The notes under the pieces were generated by a model. It had not been told where the DNA came from and ran no database searches. It worked only from the letters and a program-made list of their open reading frames with translations. Shown in pieces: positions 446 to 13,109 of a DNA stretch of 64,000 bases; positions within the stretch are counted from its first letter, which is position 1, and each line of letters begins with the position of its first letter. Source of the DNA: Nitrospirota bacterium (GTDB lineage: Bacteria; Nitrospirota; UBA9217); the NCBI GenBank assembly GCA_963796285.1, contig CAWCKW010000006.1, forward strand, positions 128,001 to 192,000, read 5' to 3'. Position numbers and translations under genes: made by a program.

Positions 446-1144
446 ATGATACAAGGTGAACAAGACAGGACGGTGGTCGAGAAGGAACAGGCATCCCGGG
501 CCGTCTCGCCCGCGAAGCGACAGGGGAAAGCCGGCGCGCAGGTGGCCGAGGTTTCCGGCAAGACACTCGGCAGGATGGTCGAGTCGTTCATGAAGCTCCC
601 CGGCATTGGTAGAAAGAGCGCAGAGCGCCTCGCGTTCGCTGTGCTCAGCATGCCGCGGGAAGAGGCGGCCGGGATCGCGCAGGCTATCCTGGACCTCAAG
701 AACAACAGTCGCTATTGCACGGTCTGTCATAATATCACCGAGGATGAGATTTGCGCCGTGTGCCGTGACGAGAGACGGGACAGCTCCCGCATCTGCGTGG
801 TGGAGGAGCCGAGCAACATCCTGGTCCTTGAAAAGAGCGGTATCTTCCGGGGCCGTTACCATGCACTGATGGGCGCTCTCTCGCCGCTCGACGGGATTGG
901 TCCGGAAGAGCTCACGATCGACGGTCTGATGGTGCGGCTGAAGAACGACGTGGTCAAGGAAGTCATTATAGCGACGAACCCTACGGTTAAGGGCGAGACC
1001 ACCGCCCTCTACCTGTCTAAGCTGATAAAGCCCCTCGGTATCTGCGTAAGCCGCATCGCCTACGGCCTGCCGGTTGGCGGGGACATAGAGTATGCGGACG
1101 ATAATACGGTCCTGCGGGCACTTGAAGGCCGGCGGGAAATGTAG
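446..1144 (+). CDS. recR: Recombination mediator RecR (true start may be GTG at 542)
   Basis: LPGIGRKSAERLA HhH, CxxC...CxxC zinc finger, Toprim VVEE...ATNPT..GE, RIAYGLPVGGDIEYAD. Confidence 0.97.
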   Translation: MIQGEQDRTVVEKEQASRAVSPAKRQGKAGAQVAEVSGKTLGRMVESFMKLPGIGRKSAERLAFAVLSMPREEAAGIAQAILDLKNNSRYCTVCHNITEDEICAVCRDERRDSSRICVVEEPSNILVLEKSGIFRGRYHALMGALSPLDGIGPEELTIDGLMVRLKNDVVKEVIIATNPTVKGETTALYLSKLIKPLGICVSRIAYGLPVGGDIEYADDNTVLRALEGRREM

Positions 1145-1277
1145 GGGGAACAGCTAATAACAAATACGTTCCAATCACCAATATTAAAAAAGAACGGACA
1201 TTGAACTTGTAAAATTTAAATCCTCATGCAGGTTTTGGTAGCTGGAGCTCAGGATTAAATTTTCGGAGGGCAAGATT

Positions 1278-1853
1278 ATGGCAGAGATGATAGAAATAAG
1301 ATGGCACGGCCGGGGCGGTCAGGGGACCGTGACGGCGGCCAAGGTGCTCGCCGATGCCTGTTTGAGCGGTGGTCGCAACGTGCAGGCGTTCCCGGAATAT
1401 GGACCTGAGCGCGCGGGAGCGCCGCTGCGCGCCTATAATCGGATCAGCGAGAAGATTCTCAGGATGCACTGCCCGGTGTTGAACCCGGGTGTCGTGGCGG
1501 TCGTCGATGCTACGCTCCTGGACGCGATCAACGTGGCCGAGGGCGCGAAGGACGATGCCGTTTTCATCATCAACACGGGCAAGGACCCGAAAGAGGTGCG
1601 GGCGAAGTTAAAGGCAAAGCCTTCCCAGAAGGTCTTCACCGTTGATGCATCCAAGATCGCAAACGAGACCATCGGCAGGAATATGCCGAACTCCTGCATG
1701 CTCGGTGCAGTGAATCGCGCCACGTCGATCGTGACCATGGAAGTGCTGCTCGATGATGTGAAGGGCAGCTTCGGAAAAAAGTTCGCGCAGAAGATCATTG
1801 ACGGGAACCTTGCCGCGGTGAAACGCGGGTACGAGGAGGTACATGAAGGATGA
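1278..1853 (+). CDS. porC: Pyruvate/2-oxoacid:ferredoxin oxidoreductase gamma subunit
   Basis: EIRWHGRGGQG, FPEYGPERAGAP. Confidence 0.93.
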   Translation: MAEMIEIRWHGRGGQGTVTAAKVLADACLSGGRNVQAFPEYGPERAGAPLRAYNRISEKILRMHCPVLNPGVVAVVDATLLDAINVAEGAKDDAVFIINTGKDPKEVRAKLKAKPSQKVFTVDASKIANETIGRNMPNSCMLGAVNRATSIVTMEVLLDDVKGSFGKKFAQKIIDGNLAAVKRGYEEVHEG

Positions 1854-2143
1854 AACAGATGAACTGGAAACAGCTGCCCCATGCCGGCACGGTATTGAAG
1901 GCGGGGAATGCGAATGAATATAAGACCGGCTCATGGCGGTCGCTCAAACCACGCTGGATCGAGGAGAACTGCATCCAGTGTCTCTTCTGCTGGATCTACT
2001 GCCCGGATTCCGCGGTCCTGGTGAAGGATGAAAAGATGATCGGATACGATTACGACCACTGCAAGGGCTGCGGTGTTTGCGCTATGGAGTGCCCGGGCAA
2101 AAAGGGCAACAAGGCCATTGTCATGGAAGAGGAGGGCAAGTAA
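1850..2143 (+). CDS. porD: Pyruvate/2-oxoacid:ferredoxin oxidoreductase delta subunit (2x[4Fe-4S])
   Basis: KTGSWRS, CIQCLFCWIYCP, CKGCGVCAMECP; ATGA overlap with porC. Confidence 0.93.
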   Translation: MKQMNWKQLPHAGTVLKAGNANEYKTGSWRSLKPRWIEENCIQCLFCWIYCPDSAVLVKDEKMIGYDYDHCKGCGVCAMECPGKKGNKAIVMEEEGK

Positions 2144-2144
2144 C

Positions 2145-3335
2145 ATGGCTGTGACAACGACAAAGACCGTGGCGGTCACCGGCAACCAGGCTGTTGCAGA
2201 GGCGCTCCGCCAGTTAAACCCCGATGTGATGCCTGCGTATCCTATCACGCCGTCCACCGGCATCATGGAGTCTTTCACCTCATTCGTTTCGAACGGGAAG
2301 GTTGACACCGAGACCATCCTTGTCGAGAGCGAGCACAGCGCTATGAGCGCTTGCATCGGCGCTTCTGCAGCGGGCGGCAGAGTGGCAACGGCCACGAGCG
2401 CTCAAGGCTTGGCCCTCATGTGGGAGATGCTGCACATTGCCTCGGGCTACCGCTTGCCGATCCTGATGGCGCTCGTGAACCGGGCGCTCTCCGCGCCGCT
2501 CAATATTCACGGCGACCATTCCGACGGTATGGGCATGCGCGACTGCGGCTGGATCCAGATCTTTTCCGAGAATGCCCAGGAGGCGTACGACAATACGATC
2601 ATGGCGTATCGCATTGCCGAGCACAAGGATGTGCGCCTGCCGATCGCGGTCAACATGGACGGGTTCATCATCAGCCATTCGATCGAGAGCATGCAGTTCC
2701 TCCCTGATGATGAGGTGAAAAAGTTCGTGGGCGACTATATCGCGATTGATCCGCTCCTGGACCTTGATAATCCCAAGAGCATCGGCGCGCTGGTGCTGCC
2801 GGACTACTACATGGAACACAAGCGCGCCCAGCACGAGGCGATGGTGAACGCGAAAAAAGTCATCCAGGAGGTATCCGCAGAATTCGCCAAGCTCTTCGGC
2901 CGCGAATATGATCTGTTCGAATCTTACCGCCTTGAAGACGCCGAGGTCGTTCTCGTCGCGCTCAACTCCGCCGCGGGAACGATCAAAGACGAGGTCGATC
3001 GCTACCGTGAAAAGGGCGTGAAGGCCGGACTGCTTAAGCCCCGCGTGTTCAGGCCTTTCCCGTATGTGGAAATCGGAGCTGCGCTCAAGAATGCCAAGGC
3101 GGTCTGCGTCATGGACCGGGCGGATTCCTACGGCGGCTACGGCCCGCTCTTTATGGAGATCGCGCCGGCCGTATACCCCTATCGCCAGGGACCGCTCCTG
3201 TTCAACAAGATCTACGGTCTCGGCGGCAGGGATCTGATGCCCCTCGATGTTGACAAGGTGATCGACGAGACCATCGAGGTCGCGAAGACCGGCACGGTCA
3301 AAATGGTGAAGGACTACATGACGGTTCGGAACTGA
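2145..3335 (+). CDS. porA: Pyruvate/2-oxoacid:ferredoxin oxidoreductase alpha subunit
   Basis: GNQAVA, AYPITPST, ESEHSA, NRALSAPLNIHGDH; ATG 2145 after GGAGG. Confidence 0.94.
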   Translation: MAVTTTKTVAVTGNQAVAEALRQLNPDVMPAYPITPSTGIMESFTSFVSNGKVDTETILVESEHSAMSACIGASAAGGRVATATSAQGLALMWEMLHIASGYRLPILMALVNRALSAPLNIHGDHSDGMGMRDCGWIQIFSENAQEAYDNTIMAYRIAEHKDVRLPIAVNMDGFIISHSIESMQFLPDDEVKKFVGDYIAIDPLLDLDNPKSIGALVLPDYYMEHKRAQHEAMVNAKKVIQEVSAEFAKLFGREYDLFESYRLEDAEVVLVALNSAAGTIKDEVDRYREKGVKAGLLKPRVFRPFPYVEIGAALKNAKAVCVMDRADSYGGYGPLFMEIAPAVYPYRQGPLLFNKIYGLGGRDLMPLDVDKVIDETIEVAKTGTVKMVKDYMTVRN

Positions 3336-5804: not shown

Positions 5805-5880
5805 TCCCGGATAGCTCAGCTGGTAGAGCGGGTGGCTGTTAACCACCATGCCGCAGGTTCGAGTCCTGCTCCGGGAGCCA
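5805..5880 (+). tRNA. tRNA-Asn (GTT)
   Basis: 76 nt cloverleaf: acceptor TCCCGGA/TCCGGGA, anticodon arm GGTGG-CTGTTAA-CCACC, GGTTCGAGTCC T arm, encoded CCA. Confidence 0.97.
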
Positions 5881-7476
5881 ATCAAGTCCAAAACTGGGCA
5901 CTCTCCCTCTCATTGGGGATCGGGTGCCCAGTTTTTTTCCTGCAATAGCCGCAGCCAGCGCCACATGACTTCCACGGACACAGACCCTGTTGCCCTCGAC
6001 CTTGATTTCATCCACAAGCAGCCTTAAATACTCTTTGCCGAACGAAGGGGAGGACTTATCCAACAGCTTGCGTTTCAACGACGAGCAGAAGGCATTGACA
6101 TGGCCCGGTTTGATATGATCCAAAGGCAACTCTTGTTCACGCCGCAGACCCGCGATTTCTGTTAATATTTCTTGCCGTCTGGCTTGATGCTTGTGGACTC
6201 GCTCCTGTAAGGTAACATCCAGCGGCAGCAAACCTTTCTCAACAGCCTCATACAGACGATCAGACTGGGTTTTGAGGTTATCCAGTTCTTTTGTTAATGC
6301 TTTCAACTGGTCATTGTGCGAGGAGCCGGATTTCTTCTGAGCATGTAACAATTCTGTCAACATGGTTTTGACTCGCTCAGGTTTAAAGACGCGATCCGCG
6401 ACAGCCTGTAATACAAGACCGTCCAGTTTTTCCATAGGGATATTATTGCTCTGGCAGGTCTTGCTTCCTATCTGGTTGATCCGCGTTGAACACTTGTAAT
6501 AGTGATACTTCCCGCTCTTGCCGGTTGCAAGGGTCATCCTTGCCCCACACTCCCCGCACCGAAGAAGGCCGGTCAGAAGGGTAGGAGAATTCACGATCCG
6601 AGGCGGCACCTTTGCCGGAGAACGGTCAACGCGGCGCTGAGCTGCGAGGTTGAAGGTCTCAATGTCAATTATCGGCTCTACAGCAATCTGCACCCATTCA
6701 GATTGAGGCTTGCGCTTTCTGGTTTTCTTTTCAGTTTTATTAAAAAAGTATTCGCCAACATAGGTTCGATTGGCAATGAGGTCATAAACAAGAGTCTTGT
6801 TCCACTTTCTGCCTCGCATAGTAATGCCCCGGTCATTAAGAAGGGAAGCAACGCCCTTTACTCCGAGCACCCGGCCTTGATGACCGTACAGATACAGCTT
6901 GAAAATATCCTTCACTATGGTTGCTTCTAACGGGTCTATTACAAGTTGTTTCTTATTACCTCTTCTACCTTGCAGCGGAAATTCTTTCGTTCCATAGCCG
7001 TAAGTAGGTTTTGAACCGTTAAAATAACCTTGCCGTGCGTTCTCTTTCATTGCGCGAAGTGTGTGTTTCGAGTTTTCCTTGCTCTGATACTCATCGAACA
7101 AACCGAAAATGCCCCTTGCCATCTCGCCGGCGGAATCATCGCCTGTTTGTTGAGTGATAGAGATTAAGTTGACTCCGTGTTTCTTTAGACGTCGATCATA
7201 AATGGCAAGCTGGACATGATCCCGAAAGAATCTCGAAAGACTATGCACGATTAACGCACTATATGGAGCAGGCTCGGCGCAGGCATCGGAAATCATTTGC
7301 TGAAATACCGTCCTTTTGTCATCCATGGCCGAGGCTCCCGGCTCGATATATTCCAACGCCACACTGTGGCCATGCGCCTTGCACCACTCACGCATTTGAC
7401 GCAGCTGATCAGGAATAGATAAATCTTTCTCAGCCTGTCTACTAGTTGATACTCGTGCATAGAGAGCTACTAACAT
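5839..7476 (-). CDS. Large serine recombinase (integrase)
   Basis: YARVST catalytic Ser, SRFFR, recombinase domain, zinc ribbon (CGECG...YYKC...C), coiled coil; GAGGAG RBS before ATG 7476; C-terminus read from antisense tRNA. Confidence 0.93.
   Translation of the reverse strand: MLVALYARVSTSRQAEKDLSIPDQLRQMREWCKAHGHSVALEYIEPGASAMDDKRTVFQQMISDACAEPAPYSALIVHSLSRFFRDHVQLAIYDRRLKKHGVNLISITQQTGDDSAGEMARGIFGLFDEYQSKENSKHTLRAMKENARQGYFNGSKPTYGYGTKEFPLQGRRGNKKQLVIDPLEATIVKDIFKLYLYGHQGRVLGVKGVASLLNDRGITMRGRKWNKTLVYDLIANRTYVGEYFFNKTEKKTRKRKPQSEWVQIAVEPIIDIETFNLAAQRRVDRSPAKVPPRIVNSPTLLTGLLRCGECGARMTLATGKSGKYHYYKCSTRINQIGSKTCQSNNIPMEKLDGLVLQAVADRVFKPERVKTMLTELLHAQKKSGSSHNDQLKALTKELDNLKTQSDRLYEAVEKGLLPLDVTLQERVHKHQARRQEILTEIAGLRREQELPLDHIKPGHVNAFCSSLKRKLLDKSSPSFGKEYLRLLVDEIKVEGNRVCVRGSHVALAAAIAGKKLGTRSPMRGRVPSFGLDWLPEQDSNLRHGG
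5873..5882 (+). repeat. attL core (3' end of tRNA-Asn)
   Basis: GGGAGCCAAT identical to 11192-11201. Confidence 0.85.
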
Positions 7477-7637
7477 AGTGTTTACTCCTCTTCTTGAGAG
7501 CATTGTATAAGAACATCTTTTATTATATCCGATAAATGTGATTGCAAAAGCCTGACCTCATTTTCAGTTATACGATCATTAGATAACTGGATATCGACTT
7601 CAATTATTATCGGCTCAGGTTTCCTCTTTTCGCTCAA

Positions 7638-7865
7638 TCATGGCGCACCGCCTTCTTTGCTCAATGTCCTGCCCGATCCGTCCCATTCCTGACCACATGT
7701 TACCCGTGTTAACTCTTTTACAAGCCCATCTCTGCCAAATTCGCTTAATACAAGCAAACGAAATGTAGAATATTGACTCGGTGTTAATGGCAATAATTCG
7801 GCATAACGTAGAATATTCTTTAGTCGTGCGCTGACGAGGTGTTCTATTTGCTCTTTAGTTACCAT
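7638..7865 (-). CDS. 75-aa hypothetical protein coupled to rep (candidate directionality factor)
   Basis: ATG overlaps rep stop (ATGGTAA); lies between rep and integrase. Confidence 0.6.
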   Translation of the reverse strand: MVTKEQIEHLVSARLKNILRYAELLPLTPSQYSTFRLLVLSEFGRDGLVKELTRVTCGQEWDGSGRTLSKEGGAP

Positions 7866-8950
7866 TTTCCCAGTTGCATTTCCTTGACACGCCGCTTCAC
7901 TTCCACATCCCAATCAAGGTATTCATGAACCCTACGCAGCTTCAGCCCGAAATGATCCAATGCCGCTTTATATCCAATGACCGGCAGACCGGATTGAATA
8001 CAATAAACCGCACCGACTCGTTTTAAATAGCCGTACATCGCGATGACCATGCGCATCATGCGTTCTTCTAAAATAGCTTCATCGTCGTAAGCATTGCACA
8101 CGCCGAGATGATTCAACATTCCGATTTCTTTCTGTAAGTCTTGCCATAAAGGATGAAGCGGCCAGCGGGATCGGTGGGAATCTCCGTTTGATTGCCTCAG
8201 AGTATCATGTTCATGAGAAAGATAACGCAGCAGGTCGCCATGCTGTCCTTGCAGGTCGTCGAAAGACACTATGCCGAAGCGCTTTAATATTGCCTTCCTA
8301 ATCTGCCATTCAATGCGCCAGACATTTTCCTTTTGTCCCCATAAGTTAAAGAACCAGACCTTGCCGCTCTCTTGCTCGATTTCAGCGACCTTATCATAGA
8401 CGCGAAGCACAATATCACCTTTGCCGAGAGTGAAAGTCTGCACCTTGCCGTTTTCACGGTGCTGGCTGTCCTTCCTAGAACGACTGACAAAACTATCCAA
8501 ATTAAAATCAACAAGAGGCAGATTATAATCAAAGGTGAAATCCACGCGGGAGAGCTTTTCCGATATAATTGGCTCAAAGCCGATAGACCTGGCCCACGAT
8601 AAAAACTTATCGTGCAGGATAAAGGCCGATTGACGCCAAAGCGCTGCGCTCCTAAACGTAACGTAAAAATTAGGCGACATGAATTCGCTGATCTCTATCT
8701 TGAAATCATTGTTTACAATAACGAAGGTATAGCCGGAGGATGTTCCGTAAGGTTGTAACAGAAATTCAGAATCGCCGAGCTTCACAGGCAGAGGATGTTT
8801 CCTTTTCGATTGACGAATTGTCTCTTTTTGCTCAGCAAGCCTTTGGAAATCGAGGCCCGACTGCCCTGCACTCTGAAGGTAATAAGCGCATTGAACGGTA
8901 TCAAGACCATGAAGAATTAATTTGATTTTATCTACAGTCATTTTAATCAC
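7859..8950 (-). CDS. Rep_trans-family replication initiator/relaxase
   Basis: GLDTV, LSRVDFTFD, TFTLG, LRVYDK (catalytic Tyr), WRIEWQIR. Confidence 0.88.
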   Translation of the reverse strand: MIKMTVDKIKLILHGLDTVQCAYYLQSAGQSGLDFQRLAEQKETIRQSKRKHPLPVKLGDSEFLLQPYGTSSGYTFVIVNNDFKIEISEFMSPNFYVTFRSAALWRQSAFILHDKFLSWARSIGFEPIISEKLSRVDFTFDYNLPLVDFNLDSFVSRSRKDSQHRENGKVQTFTLGKGDIVLRVYDKVAEIEQESGKVWFFNLWGQKENVWRIEWQIRKAILKRFGIVSFDDLQGQHGDLLRYLSHEHDTLRQSNGDSHRSRWPLHPLWQDLQKEIGMLNHLGVCNAYDDEAILEERMMRMVIAMYGYLKRVGAVYCIQSGLPVIGYKAALDHFGLKLRRVHEYLDWDVEVKRRVKEMQLGKW

Positions 8951-8985
8951 TAAAGTGAATGCTCATTAACTTCGCAAGCATTTTC

Positions 8986-9291
8986 TTATTTATTCTTCTT
9001 AGTTCGCTTCTTAATCTCCGGTTCGTTTTTCTCTTGACCAAATAAGTCCAGGACTTTATTTGCAGCTTCTTCATTCAAACCAAAAGCCTTCATGATTTTC
9101 GGTCTCATATATCTATGGACTTCTAAAAGGTCCGGGTTATTCTTAAGAATTCGTTTTAACTCCCGGTTATCGCTTGTTGATGCGCATATCATCACCCAAC
9201 GAGCAACCGCAGACATACTAATCTTTCGTGGTAATTCACGAGCCGCAGCATAGCTAGAATCGTCTAAGTATATGTTAGTTCTTACTGCCAT
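8986..9291 (-). CDS. Ribbon-helix-helix (CopG-like) regulator
   Basis: N-terminal RTNIYLD strand then helices (ISMSAVARW); GGAGGG RBS before ATG 9291; first gene of rep operon. Confidence 0.65.
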   Translation of the reverse strand: MAVRTNIYLDDSSYAAARELPRKISMSAVARWVMICASTSDNRELKRILKNNPDLLEVHRYMRPKIMKAFGLNEEAANKVLDLFGQEKNEPEIKKRTKKNK

Positions 9292-9331
9292 TGATTCACC
9301 CTCCCTTGGTTTATCTATACCACACGTAGCA

Positions 9332-9360
9332 ACATTAACACACATGACACACCTTGTCAA
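9332..9360 (-). promoter_or_regulatory. Promoter of RHH-rep operon
   Basis: Minus strand TTGACA-17 bp-TAATGT; spacer contains repeated GTGTGT (possible operator). Confidence 0.65.
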
Positions 9361-9416
9361 GCAAGAAATAATTAGTAAGTTCAGATATGGCTATAATAGA
9401 TAAACCCAGGCACACT

Positions 9417-9449
9417 GGCCTTCCCCTCGCTTCGCTCCGGGGAGTGGCC
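9417..9449 (-). other. GC-rich hairpin, candidate single-strand origin
   Basis: GGCC-TCCCC...GGGGA-GGCC arms with GAGCGAAGCGA on minus strand. Confidence 0.45.
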
Positions 9450-9547
9450 TCTTCCGACGTAATTCTAAACAATTATTGACATATATCAACAAACGTGATT
9501 ATATATCCTTGTTTTATAACACTGACCAGAAGGAAGATGGATTTATC

Positions 9548-9572
9548 ACCCCCCGTGTTACTGATCCGGGGG
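9548..9572 (-). other. Candidate double-strand origin/oriT nick site for Rep_trans
   Basis: Minus strand CCCCCGGATCAGTAACACGGGGGGT: poly-C/poly-G stem around TAACA, as in Tn916/ICEBs1-type nick sites. Confidence 0.7.
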
Positions 9573-9653
9573 CCGAAGGCGCAGGATGTTAGGCATTCTT
9601 CTTGCTAAACTGGTAAAGAACGAAAATTCGTGCTTTACTAGCCATGTGCGGCT

Positions 9654-9672
9654 AGATAATCACTGGTTAGTC
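9654..9672 (+). other. attI-like cassette insertion site
   Basis: AGATAAT (L-like) + 5 bp CACTG + G/TTAGTC core. Confidence 0.65.
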
Positions 9673-10607
9673 CGGAGTAAAAAATGAGATATTCAATAAT
9701 AATTGCTATCTTGCTTTATAGCACGACATCGTTTGCTGAAGACCCGCAATTGTCGGCAGACAAAAAATTGGCTGATCTATTATTCCCATCAGAAAGCAGC
9801 GTCCAACTGGAACAATTTCCCGTGCTAACGGAAGCAGAATTCAATCCAATTAAGGATAAGGTTTTTAAACAATTAGATTCAGATGCCTGTCACATTATTT
9901 CCACTAGCGACACACCGCACGAGTTCTTCCGTAAATATGATTTGTCTGGTGCTGGTGTTGATGATGTGATTCTAAGTTCCTATTGTGCGGCAATGGAATA
10001 TAGAAACTTTATCTGGTTTCGCAAGGGGAATTCATTAAAATATGCCGGCTTCATGTTGGGCACGCCGTTAAAATATTACCGCCCCAGTAAGTCGGAACCT
10101 TATTCAATTGTAGTAAGTGAAGGTTGGTGCTGTGCAGGTTTTGTCGGCAAAATCAGCCTCTACAAACTGAAAGAAAATCGTGGGCTTTATAAATATAAAC
10201 TTGAAAAAAGAGTAATGGAATGGGGCGGAATCACAATTCCTGACAAACGAATAGCCCCCGTTAAGTTTAAAATTAAGTCTGAAAAATACGCCCTAAGAGA
10301 TTCGCCGGAAATTCGTAACGAACCAATTGACGACATTCCTGGCGGGAAAAAACAAATCGGAAATATTATCGCGGAATTTCCACGTGGTAGCCAGGGAGAG
10401 GCAATAGCAGCGGATAAAGACAAGACAGGCCAGATCTGGTGGTTTGTTCTGATGGATAAAGATTCAAAAACCATCACTACTCTTTTTTATGCCGATAACG
10501 GAGCTTATAAAGCTGGATGGATGAGACAACAAGATCTTGAAATAGCCAAATGAAGACCAACCAGTCGTTCGAGTCCCGCGCTCTACGGCGCGGGGCTCAA
10601 CTCGTCG
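9667..10607 (+). mobile_element. Integron gene cassette 1
   Basis: Starts TTAGTC, single ORF with RBS, ends in attC whose GACCAAC is near-complementary to GTTAGTC. Confidence 0.85.
9684..10553 (+). CDS. Secreted hypothetical protein, C-terminal SH3b-like region
   Basis: Signal peptide MRYSIIIAILLYSTTSFA; C-terminal LRDSP...IAEFPRG...WWFV...GWM pattern. Confidence 0.8.
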   Translation: MRYSIIIAILLYSTTSFAEDPQLSADKKLADLLFPSESSVQLEQFPVLTEAEFNPIKDKVFKQLDSDACHIISTSDTPHEFFRKYDLSGAGVDDVILSSYCAAMEYRNFIWFRKGNSLKYAGFMLGTPLKYYRPSKSEPYSIVVSEGWCCAGFVGKISLYKLKENRGLYKYKLEKRVMEWGGITIPDKRIAPVKFKIKSEKYALRDSPEIRNEPIDDIPGGKKQIGNIIAEFPRGSQGEAIAADKDKTGQIWWFVLMDKDSKTITTLFYADNGAYKAGWMRQQDLEIAK

Positions 10608-10613
10608 TTATCT
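10555..10613 (+). repeat. attC site (59 bp)
   Basis: GACCAAC-5-GTTCGAG-TCCCGCGC..GCGCGGGG-CTCAAC-5-GTTATCT; extrahelical C in L''. Confidence 0.92.
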
Positions 10614-11145
10614 CCCCAAGTTGAAGGAAGGGGTCACACCATTAATACTGAAACAGCTCAACAGAATAGAGAACTTCGAGGAAATCCATACGACAAGTGG
10701 CTTGTCTGGGGTCCAGTCCTCGCAGGCGCTCTGTTGCCATACACGATATATACTCTATTCAATCCAAAGTTCCTGCTAGATATAGCCAAAACACCAGATG
10801 AGCTTGTGATTATGAGCATCGGCGCGATCATTTCTGATATTCCTTTCTTCGTTGTAGCCTTTTTCGCAAACGGTGACAAGAGTCGTAATTATAATCTGAG
10901 AAGGCGAGTTAGCAATACTGCCATACGATTCCTACCTGTATTCGGAATATATGCCTTTCTGCTTTATGATGTAGCAAGGGCAGCTGCTCTTAGACTGCCA
11001 GGTGCGTCAACGGCACCGATCGCTTTATTAATATTCCTGCCAATTGCCGTGTTGCTCGTATTTGTATTACAGCTGATCACCAAAGCTATTGAAAGATAAC
11101 CTGGCGCTCGACTGCGACGCGCAAAGTCGGCGCGTCAGCGCCGCG
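10608..11145 (+). mobile_element. Integron gene cassette 2
   Basis: Starts TTATCT; inverse core AGATAAC is the exact complement of GTTATCT and contains the ORF stop codon. Confidence 0.88.
10641..11099 (+). CDS. Hypothetical integral membrane protein (~4 TM), probable ATT start
   Basis: Frame is open upstream of TTG 10734 to ATT 10641, which follows AAGGAAGGGG; hydrophobic segments. Confidence 0.7.
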   Translation: MNTETAQQNRELRGNPYDKWLVWGPVLAGALLPYTIYTLFNPKFLLDIAKTPDELVIMSIGAIISDIPFFVVAFFANGDKSRNYNLRRRVSNTAIRFLPVFGIYAFLLYDVARAAALRLPGASTAPIALLIFLPIAVLLVFVLQLITKAIER

Positions 11146-11151
11146 TTAAAG
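11094..11151 (+). repeat. attC site (58 bp)
   Basis: AGATAAC-5-GCTCGAC...GTCAGC-5-GTTAAAG; extrahelical C. Confidence 0.9.
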
Positions 11152-11191
11152 TGTGATTATTTCATTCCATTGCCCTGTTTCATCATGTCCG

Positions 11192-11201
11192 GGGAGCCAA
11201 T
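11192..11201 (+). repeat. attR core
   Basis: GGGAGCCAAT repeat of tRNA 3' end. Confidence 0.85.
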
Positions 11202-11206
11202 TTTAC

Positions 11207-11237
11207 AAAAAAACCAGAATTCAATTCTGGTTTTTTT
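11207..11237 (+). terminator. Bidirectional terminator, probably the displaced tRNA-Asn terminator
   Basis: AAAAAAACCAGAAT-TCA-ATTCTGGTTTTTTT immediately after attR. Confidence 0.75.
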
Positions 11238-11535
11238 CATTTAACGATGAGCCACCGGATATACCTTCTTCAGAGCGAAACCAGAGACCGACATTATTGC
11301 GGTTTTGCAAAGGGTGCTCATCGTTGATTACAAACACCTCAACGACCCGAAGCATCAAGGAATTATGACCACAAAGAGATTTTAGGAATAGTGGTGCACG
11401 CGTTGGTTTGAAAAATGCAAAAGAAATGCGTTAGCAGTATGCGAAAGCAAGTCAAAGTGTAACTAAGAACGCTCGACCATCACGTGACTATGTCCTGTCC
11501 CAGCATGGGCCGGAATACGGACAGCACTAGACAGG

Positions 11536-12240
11536 TCATATGCCAAGACCGGCATGCGATTTGGGTGCATTTGTATCTATATACGCTTCCAAGGTCTTTG
11601 CTGCTTCAGGAGGAAGGTTTAAGAAGTGCACGCCATACCAATTGGCATCAACTCCCGGCACCGGTTGGATGATCCTGATGATCTCTCCTGTTAGCTGGAT
11701 CTGTGTCGTGTTGGGCAGGAAGAACGAGCAGGAGAGCCTGTCGCCTTGGTTGAAGGTCTGGATAGTTTCAATGAGCATTCCGGCAAGGCTGATATCCAGG
11801 GAGTTACAGACAAAGTGGTTGGTGCTAACAGTCCCTTCAACGGCAACGTTGAGAAGCACTCGGTATGTTTCTCTCCAGGAGAGATTAAGGAGTGTTTTTG
11901 CCTGTGCCAGAAGTTGGGCGGGTTTAAAAGGTCGAGTAATAACGGCTTCTGCTTTGCAGTGCGAGCTCTGTTTGAGTGCGCTCTTGGTGTTTGCACAGAC
12001 TAGGATTATGGATACTGGACTGTGTTCTGCATACTCCCTGAGAAGAGAGCAGAGCTGCTCAATGCCCATCCCCGGCATGTCAAAATTTATAATAATGAGG
12101 TCAGCGCGCACCGTGCGATGGATCTGCAGCACTTCATCAGTTGAGGCCGACGTGAATATCCGCATATCCGCCCGGTCTAAGAAGGTGTTTTTTTTCCTGA
12201 GTATCGTGTTTATGTCCTGATCAAGGATTATTTTTTTCAT
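11536..12240 (-). CDS. Pseudo-receiver + PilZ domain protein
   Basis: REC-like N-terminus (DLIIINFDMPGM, TRPF); PilZ RETYR and DISLAG motifs, YGVHF. Confidence 0.85.
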   Translation of the reverse strand: MKKIILDQDINTILRKKNTFLDRADMRIFTSASTDEVLQIHRTVRADLIIINFDMPGMGIEQLCSLLREYAEHSPVSIILVCANTKSALKQSSHCKAEAVITRPFKPAQLLAQAKTLLNLSWRETYRVLLNVAVEGTVSTNHFVCNSLDISLAGMLIETIQTFNQGDRLSCSFFLPNTTQIQLTGEIIRIIQPVPGVDANWYGVHFLNLPPEAAKTLEAYIDTNAPKSHAGLGI

Positions 12241-13109
12241 GGCTCAATTTCCAGGGTTCAGTCAACATTTGGTTGCGGCCAATCATGATTGACAAGCATA
12301 CATGACCGATTTCCCCTAACCCTTGCACAATTATTATAGCAGTAACATAATTATATTGTCAAGCATAGAAAATGAAACAGGGGAAACAGTTATGTTTTAG
12401 GTTATATTAAAGCAAGCAGGGCTACGGCATTCTTATGCAGCATGATAACTTGTATCTGCCTTGATTTCTTCAGCTTCACAACGCTGCCGTGTAGTGACAA
12501 CATAGTAGCACAATTAAGATCAGGCTATTTCCTTTGACTGCTGCTATTCGGCACTATTTGCAAATCAGAGAAATCGTTGAAGACTTCTTTTAACTCTTCA
12601 AGAAACAAGTAGGCCCGCTTATTCTGCTCAGTCACACATCTGTACTCGTGCTCTGTGTTAACATGCATCTCACGCTTTGATTTCGAGACTTATTCATGTT
12701 TGTATAGTTGATCCTACAAAAGTTTTCATCGGATCCAGACGCCCGCATAGCGAACCACACCTCGTTGCCTTGCGCGAGCATCTTAGTTCACTCGGGGAGA
12801 TAATAAGGCTTGCGATCCAGCCGGTTATGGCGAGAGCAACTTCTGTTTTGCGCAAGAGCGGTCATTTTTTAATGAAAATGGACTATTGCACACCGTCACA
12901 GATAGTATTGAAGGGAAGGAGCGCAATAAAATCATCAGCGCTGCTTTATGCTCTTCGGATGATAGTGCAATTCGTGTTGAGTTGCAGCGTCCGTTTTTCG
13001 TCGGCCTGCGGTTCGGATTTATCGGAGGAGGCAGATTGTATTCGTCAGAACACTCCCGGCTAGGTTCAAAGAATATAATGAGATGGATATCATCAGAACC
13101 GGAAAACAC

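Follow-up and report, generated by a model that had tools for sequence, protein, structure and literature searches.

An integron cassette array with its own predicted attI and no integrase gene, in a putative tRNA-Asn island of a Nitrospirota bacterium

Results

Layout of the array

The DNA analysed here, which we call the window, is a stretch of 64,000 nucleotides (nt) from a Nitrospirota bacterium (GTDB lineage Bacteria; Nitrospirota; UBA9217; GenBank assembly GCA_963796285.1, contig CAWCKW010000006.1, positions 128,001 to 192,000 of the forward strand); positions below are counted from its first letter. On the plus strand it holds a short integron-type array: an attI-like site (9589..9668); cassette 1 (9667..10607, 941 nt, with boundaries taken from attI and attC1), which contains the open reading frame (ORF) ORF1 (9684-10553) and ends with the site attC1 (10555..10613, 59 nt); and cassette 2 (10608..11145, 538 nt), which contains ORF2 (open frame 10617-11099) and ends with attC2 (11094..11151, 58 nt). 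The predicted product of cassette 1 is a secreted protein of 289 amino acids (aa) with a signal-peptide-like N-terminus, and that of cassette 2 is a predicted small membrane protein. We consider it very likely that the array consists of an attI and two independently acquired cassettes, that it is an attC-site cluster without an integron-integrase (CALIN), and that it lies in an insertion, together with a serine recombinase gene, at a tRNA-Asn gene.

Both cassettes end in sites with attC architecture. In attC1 the order is R'' GACCAAC, a 5-nt spacer, L'' GTTCGAG with an extra C, an 8-bp stem around a short loop, L' CTCAAC, another 5-nt spacer, and R' GTTATCT; in attC2 it is R'' AGATAAC, a 5-nt spacer, L'' GCTCGAC, again with an extra C, an interior unlike that of attC1, L' GTCAGC, a 5-nt spacer, and R' GTTAAAG. 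Each site has an inverse core ending in AAC and a core starting with GTT, in inverted order, and falls within the 50-150 nt criterion for attC. The L boxes pair as GTT(C)GAG/CTCAAC and GCT(C)GAC/GTCAGC with one extrahelical base on the L'' side; on the bottom strand, the extra C of L'' relative to L' is an extrahelical G at both sites. The two ORFs are co-oriented, the ORF1 stop codon TGA (10551-10553) lying 1 nt before R'' of attC1 and the ORF2 stop codon TAA (11097-11099) inside R'' of attC2, and 480 nt separate the two sites.

Covariance models of the attC sites

A plain scan for the R''/L''/L'/R' pattern was too unspecific to be of use, giving 535 matches compared with 671 in the reversed genome. 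With a stem-energy filter, 9 matches were left against 2 in the reversed control. These served only to seed models and led to a family of ~59-nt sites in the source genome, with 11 copies found by nhmmer at E < 1e-5. Two covariance models were built: R1 from 13 attC sites elsewhere in the source genome, with both window sites left out, and R2 from seven attC1-type sites (four from genomes of relatives, two from one metagenome contig, and one from another place in the source genome). In an unfiltered run over the 64-kb window, R1 found two sites, attC2 with a score of 61.4 bits (E 2e-16) and attC1 with 20.4 bits (E 0.0013), the next match having an E of 0.46. With R2 the scores were 82.6 bits (E 6.5e-29) for attC1 and 15.7 bits (E 0.0095) for attC2, again with no other site in the window. 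The covariance-model scan that a first-pass annotation of this DNA, made from its letters, had proposed as a check thus recovered both sites with either model. Rfam does not have an attC family; at gathering score its models found only RNase P and two tRNAs in the window, and nothing above threshold in 9300-11400.

The two window sites belong to different subfamilies, attC1-type and attC2-type, the latter being the commonest in the source genome. Over that whole genome R1 gave 21 matches at E<=1, representing at least 14 places, and attC2 is 96% identical to C12:86371-86424, on another contig. Relatives of the window sites form arrays of 11 and six sites, one of which starts beside an intact intI, and attC1-type sites also occur in the arrays of loci L024, L050, and L053. 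In the alignment of the 13 attC2-type sites, 86.3% of cells paired canonically compared with 27-49% when the partner was slid, and 21 cells were changed on both sides (vs 0/500 shuffles), with GC/CG swaps in the L box. The L-box pairs covary, and the extrahelical base is retained.

Two further observations concern these families. Many genomes of the family share the attC1 interior at 86-98% identity, as does, at 91%, a genome from another family of the same phylum (G030), and the ORFs that precede attC1-like interiors are unrelated or only 40% identical. On C12, two identical partial attC-like sites (C12:1134655-1134700 and C12:1136187-1136232; 26.6 bits each, model positions 7-54) lie 1.5 kb apart and look like a recent duplication that included a decayed attC.

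Complementarity of cassette ends

If circular cassettes are inserted at G|TT, each R'' should be complementary to the first bases of its own cassette. R'' of attC2 is complementary at 7/7 positions to the start of cassette 2 (GTTATCT, 10607-10613) and R'' of attC1 at 6/7 positions to the start of cassette 1 (GTTAGTC, 9666-9672), compared with 4/7 and 3/7, respectively, for the physically adjacent R'. We examined the four variable R'' positions in 27 consecutive attC pairs from arrays of the attC1- and attC2-type families. Mean complementarity was 2.67 to the cassette's own start, 1.41 to the adjacent R', and 1.48 under random pairing; none of 20000 permutations reached the observed mean, and a perfect own-start match was seen in 9/27 pairs, compared with 2.2% at random. 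The offset complementarity described in the first-pass annotation for these two cassettes is therefore general over the 27 junctions.

We asked whether the hairpins could instead be transcription terminators or palindromes like repetitive extragenic palindromes (REP) that happen to resemble attC. Both are imperfect palindromes of high GC content that come right after stop codons, the genome has ~20 scattered copies, and the two strands fold about equally well at both sites, the predicted bottom-strand hairpins having energies of -14.5 (attC1) and -16.2 kcal/mol (attC2) and the canonical folds with the extrahelical G being feasible at -11.2 and -13.8 kcal/mol. However, the same families make up the arrays of 11 and six sites, one of them beside an intact intI; their variable 4-nt ends obey the cassette offset rule; neither window site is followed by a T-run; and the L-box pairs covary with the extrahelical base kept. 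We regard such an origin as extremely improbable. The call of both sites as attC is upheld by their architecture, by two independently built models, and by their family context; the description of them as 'intact' holds for their structure only.

A predicted attI at the head of the array

BLAST identified a homologue of 9589-9669 in a genome of the same genus (G008, locus L046), where it lies between an intact intI (353 bits; ORF 804-2276, minus strand of L046) and the first cassette of an array of 11 attC sites. The window site and the G008 copy are 74% identical over 78 nt. When seven copies from five genomes were aligned on the G of GTT, the two blocks of 40 nt left of G|TT had mean pairwise identities of 0.64 and 0.72; to the right the value was 1.00 for TT and then 0.34 and 0.27. 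The break in homology at G|TT, with different sequences beyond it, points to a shared landing site with different inserted cassettes. An attC array in the same orientation follows the window copy and 6/6 of the relatives' copies examined. Judging by coordinates, copies in G061 and G052 are immediately upstream of an intact intI and in divergent orientation to it; the last ~13 nt of the site recur upstream of intact intI in G006 and G014.

We conclude from this homology that 9589-9668 is the predicted attI at the array head, with its crossover point between G9666 and T9667. Because the homology breaks at the crossover, GTTAGTC is taken as the junction between attI and cassette 1, in agreement with the first-pass annotation, which had placed the start of cassette 1 there. 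Variant copies of the leader that precedes the site (C12:647905 and, in G006, locus L044) were not counted as attI, since they have no GTT core and show no homology break.

Among the 64 genomes of the family, 23 carry a total of 49 full-length attI-type copies, and a further 23 partial matches raise the number of genomes to 27; intI above cut-off is found in 28. Copies of attI outnumber intI in G052 (8 vs 2), in G008 (3 vs 1), and in G018 (3 vs a fragment only). Many intI genes of the family lie 200-800 nt from contig ends, and assembly breaks at the repeated attI inflate the apparent number of orphan copies. In G008 and G018, each of which is in ~10 contigs, five full-length attI copies have no adjacent intI, and housekeeping genes lie upstream of the three of these that were examined.

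These data bear on the idea that an integrase inserted both cassettes at an attG or other secondary site. According to Loot et al. (10.1101/2022.09.11.507474), CALINs most often have two cassettes, and experiments have demonstrated insertion at attG; moreover, neither R1 nor R2 found an attC ahead of cassette 1. Yet the junction is an 80-nt sequence that recurs throughout the family in the numbers given above, three of its copies lie directly upstream of intact intI, and the homology always ends at G|TT. We therefore hold insertion at an attG or secondary site to be highly improbable and retain the interpretation of the sequence as an attI.

Within the attI-like site, 9641-9658 contains a 6-bp hairpin (CTAGCC...GGCTAG), the pairing of which is kept in G014 through a double change (CTTGCC...GGCAAG). 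For a site that is supposed to recombine in duplex form, such conservation comes as a surprise.

Upstream of the site, a promoter-like sequence, TTGACA-17 nt-TTATAT (9476..9504, plus strand), recognized by eye, reads into the array, and TTGACA-17-TAAACT/TACAAT is present at the matching position of the copies in G023 and G006. This sequence probably drives both ORFs. The leader upstream of attI (9537-9609) is conserved, with a promoter-like site, a CCCCG...CGGGG hairpin, and then GCAGGATGTTAGGC; it has no match in Rfam. It is also found at C12:647905-647976 and in L044 of G006 (2564-2643 and 6798-6884), and occurs joined to a different 3' part without the GTT core.

Absence of an integrase gene

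TIGR02249 gave no match on contig C6, no fragment of intI was found in the island or the window, and no ORF neighbouring the array has a tyrosine recombinase domain. The best TIGR02249 match in the source genome (225 bits, below cut-off) is on another contig, C12, where two intI remnants correspond to the C-terminal 187 aa (residues 304-490) and to 49 aa (residues 442-490) of the G008 IntI. With regard to the parts of a complete integron, the array has no adjacent divergent intI, and by homology it has an attI at its head. Because at least two attC sites are clustered with no integron integrase gene nearby, we class the array, from its sequence, as a CALIN with its own attI.

Two side observations were made on the integrases. 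The IntI proteins of the family lie in open frames of ~440-560 codons and have ~170 more N-terminal residues than the family model of 315 positions (e.g., L046 804-2276). Residues 13-61 of the G008 IntI match C12:977894-978040 of the source genome at 41%.

An alternative history is that the array is the remnant of a complete integron whose intI was lost in place, through the island or a rearrangement, in which case the attI-array block would never have been a self-moving module without intI. The two truncated remnants indicate that intI decay does occur in this genome, loss of intI is named as one origin of CALINs by Cury et al. (PMC4889954), and the position of many family intI genes near contig ends means that some orphan attI copies may be no more than products of assembly breaks. 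Nevertheless, the island and the window hold no intI fragment; the ORF divergent from attI is unrelated to IntI; the syntenic arrays at tRNA-Asn in G023 and G006 also have no intI and have different cassettes; and the five attI copies without intI in G008 and G018 include the three with housekeeping genes upstream. Loss of intI in place thus appears unlikely, although considerably less so than the attG and terminator explanations, and we continue to favor a CALIN that came with the island.

A putative island at tRNA-Asn

The island is bounded on the left by the tRNA-Asn (GTT) gene at 5805..5880 (plus strand; ARAGORN; Rfam, 69.4 bits), its presumed target. The left copy of an imperfect direct repeat, TCCGGGAGCCAAT (5870..5882, plus strand), covers the tRNA 3' end and marks the left junction, where homology with empty sites breaks; the right copy, TCCGGGGAGCCAAT (11188..11201, plus strand), marks the right junction, and core homology to G001, G004, and a contig from metagenome run X1 begins at 11192. 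A repeat search with a minimum length of 16 had missed this 13-14-nt junction repeat. In G004 and G001, both of the same genus, the site is empty: the tRNA-Asn gene is 100% conserved and runs straight into the sequence found from window position 11192 onward. The X1 contig is likewise empty: on it the tRNA 3' end is followed by the sequence from 11192 on, with a single difference over 209 nt. The occupied right end is present unchanged on contigs from runs X1, X2, and X3, and the joint expected of a circular form of the island was not seen on the metagenome contigs. The GC content is 0.40-0.49 from about 5900 to 13000 and 0.55-0.60 in the flanks. Comparison with the empty sites shows that 5881-11199 is a single ~5.3-kb insertion at the 3' end of tRNA-Asn, comprising the recombinase gene, three ORFs, the predicted attI, and both cassettes.

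The large serine recombinase (5839..7503, minus strand, 554 aa), whose last 14 codons overlap the tRNA 3' end, matches the Pfam families Resolvase (92.9 bits), Recombinase (62.9 bits), and Zn_ribbon_recom (62.8 bits). In NCBIfam it matches CcrB best, with 148 bits, which falls far short of the cut-off of 900. Between it and the array lie three more minus-strand ORFs, p91 (7638..7913), p363 (7859..8950), and p124 (8986..9288), none of which has a match above cut-off in Pfam, NCBIfam, PHROGs, or PADLOC. The last of these is ~100 aa long, although it was listed as 124 aa from TTG 9360, and is divergent from the array. It stands where an integron would have intI, and tblastn found no similarity to the G008 IntI. 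By Atlas features, p363 comes closest to Rep_trans clusters (score 0.97, recognition remaining under the mark set by the tool), and Pfam Phage_CRI is matched at E 0.022, below cut-off. A rolling-circle Rep or relaxase is possible for p363, as a lead only.

A related island occurs in G002 (L037), with 80% DNA identity over the backbone and amino acid identities of 83% for the recombinase, 71% for p91, and 79% for p363. G023, which is from another genus, has tRNA-Asn with a 74-nt piece of the left end, attI, and different cassettes, but no recombinase. A block consisting of attC2, a piece of the right end, and a terminator is 75% conserved in G006 (L044 3227-3020). Also in locus L044 (G006:C47:123000-133000), 45 nt of the tRNA-Asn 3' end are repeated ~10 kb away from the complete tRNA gene. 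After this repeated piece come leader copies, attC sites, and a right end that shares 75% identity with window 11097-11303, an arrangement that looks like tandem islands at tRNA-Asn. Beyond the array in the window is a gene for a response regulator with a PilZ domain.

The right end of array and island (11146..11198, plus strand) corresponds to the initial ~52 nt of a repeat, 'X', that is ~175 nt long, has a terminal inverted repeat of 8 nt, and occurs in three full copies, at C12:499608-499784, C12:1289563-1289726, and C12:722938-723103. The repeat abuts an attC in two places with the identical junction GCGTTAAAGTGTG, and it contains a stretch like the 3' end of tRNA-Asn. The sequence after attC2 starts with GTGTG and was considered as the end of a group II intron; this was rejected, because a full copy has no Rfam match and the sequence is the ~175-nt repeat, which in the window ends at the island junction.

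Cassette ORFs and their relatives

ORF1 has only three close protein relatives (56-62% identical) and belongs to a wider uncharacterised family with 335 representatives at E <= 0.001. Relatives are found as cassettes in other arrays. The complete integron of G008 contains one (L046 6120-7010, 41%) with an attC directly after it (7008-7066); a second (40%) lies between two attC1-type sites on metagenome contig L024, in an array of at least five sites; and a third (55%), on metagenome contig L023, is preceded by an attC. The neighbouring cassettes differ in each array. The suggestion in the first-pass annotation that the same ORFs be sought in integrons elsewhere was thus borne out for ORF1.

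ORF1 has no match in Pfam, NCBIfam, PHROGs, or PADLOC, and ORF2 has only one faint PHROG match (E 0.0079). The AlphaFold2 model of ORF1 has a predicted local distance difference test score (pLDDT) of 93.8, and Foldseek found nothing in the PDB at E <= 0.001. The C-terminal third of the model resembles bacterial SH3b wall-binding domains with middling Z scores (7.4-7.7), which offers a lead only.

ORF2 has six homologs in metagenome and protein databases, 94-162 aa in length, that cover the N-terminus, and a metagenome scan for its relatives found none. At the position of a T in the window, its nearest relative carries M, and ORF2 may be a pseudogene, as far as its start region indicates. Among the 63 other genomes of the family, one has a weak relative (32%), and 62 have none. 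The open frame also contains a Shine-Dalgarno-like GAAGGAAGGGG (10623-10633), with an in-frame ATT (10641) 7 nt after it. ORF2 shares its reading frame with ORF1: its 181-codon frame opens at the TGA of ORF1, and readthrough of that stop would fuse both across attC1.

From the differing attC interiors, the two cassettes had been proposed to have been acquired independently. This is reasonable: attC1- and attC2-type sites are also combined in other arrays (L024), and ORF1 relatives have varying neighbours, which together fit independent acquisition, and ORF2 relatives are rare in the family.

Discussion

Our analysis suggests the following history for the array. An IntI encoded elsewhere would have folded the bottom strand of the attC of each circular cassette and recombined it with attI at G|TT, cassette 2 being inserted first and cassette 1 second. 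The large serine recombinase, rather than IntI, would then move the array as a unit. Because the assembled genome holds only truncated intI remnants, the two cassettes would at present be frozen unless an IntI arrives in trans. The first-pass annotation, which dealt with the attC sites, had missed that no integron integrase is nearby, that the array has its own attI, and that it is cargo of a tRNA-Asn island.

Several observations weigh against this account. R1 and R2 were built from the same attC families as the window sites and are not the general attC model of IntegronFinder. For cassette 1, the 3-of-4 match to its own start is not significant alone, since 14.5% of random pairs reach it. 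The bottom-strand folding check proposed in the first-pass annotation gave a mixed outcome: hairpins are predicted at both sites, but with modest z-scores (-2.5 and -2.1), and the canonical fold with the extrahelical G lies 3.3 (attC1) and 2.4 kcal/mol (attC2) above the minimum-energy fold. A consensus promoter scan did not list 9476-9504. Distant relatives of ORF1 (22-29%; five genome loci, four of which are from Gemmatimonadota metagenome-assembled genomes) have no R1-type attC, the best match being 15.3 bits with a model that is family-specific, and R1 found no attC near the weak ORF2 relative in the family genome. ORF2 has no ATG, GTG, or TTG ahead of its conserved N-terminus, and its sole canonical start, TTG 10734, is inside that part. 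In G002 the contig ends before the position of attI, and it is not established that the array is always on an intact backbone. Finally, the source genome is 96% complete in 13 contigs, and an intact intI could be unassembled.

The numbers of attI and intI in the family raise a broader idea, that attI-headed arrays are integrase-less satellite platforms served in trans by any IntI, and that in at least one lineage, that of the window, such a platform became cargo of a tRNA-Asn island, moved between genomes by the serine recombinase, perhaps with a Rep/relaxase-like protein. We put this forward tentatively, as somewhat less than an even chance. If true, it would be a concrete route for the origin and spread of CALINs, independent of intI loss and of attG insertion. 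The window provides a clean and well-bounded case of an array that has retained an attI of its own. The block of attI and cassettes is present or absent together with the serine-recombinase island, and this joint presence and absence implies that integron arrays can reach genomes with no working integrase by means of a second recombination system. The attI consensus also makes attI searchable in this family, in which there are more attI copies than intI genes. According to Cury et al. (PMC4889954), IntegronFinder can look for attI only in classes 1-3, and most CALINs were found far from any intI pseudogene.

Like the CALINs described by Cury et al. (2016), the window array has two attC sites within 600 nt, no nearby intI, orphan cassettes without database families, and intI remnants on another contig. 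It differs in being headed by an identifiable attI homolog and in lying inside a delimited mobile island. As in attG insertion and the single attC sites lacking integron-integrases (SALINs) treated by Loot et al. (10.1101/2022.09.11.507474), a few cassettes are located away from an integrase; the landing site here, however, is a conserved attI-type sequence, not a genome site unlike att sites. The complete chromosomal integron of G008 (L046) shares with the window its attI type, attC2-type sites, and an ORF1 relative (41%) among its cassettes, but its divergent intI is intact (353 bits) and its attC sites number 11, whereas the window has no intI and two attC sites.

Among the matches listed for integron, attC, serine recombinase, and genomic island, as far as the listing goes, there was no published account of an integron array in a serine-recombinase genomic island. 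That a CALIN bearing attI can be on a mobile element is already known from the Shewanella prophage M16-3 (Qi et al. 2023; PMC9892861), and what the window adds, the vehicle, is modestly new. In both cases a mobile element carries an array without integrase, and at the head of this array stands a copy of the attI site found at the head of a complete integron as well. The vehicle in the window is a 5.3-kb tRNA-Asn island with a large serine recombinase rather than a prophage; in addition, neither the element nor the assembled genome has a complete integron, and across the family there are many attI copies per genome. With the islands of large serine recombinases, such as Ccr of the staphylococcal cassette chromosome (SCC), the element has in common the set of Resolvase, Recombinase, and Zn ribbon domains, a small cargo island at a fixed site, and both occupied and empty alleles. 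It is distinguished from them by a recombinase that is not a Ccr equivalog, by tRNA-Asn as its target, and by an integron array as its cargo.

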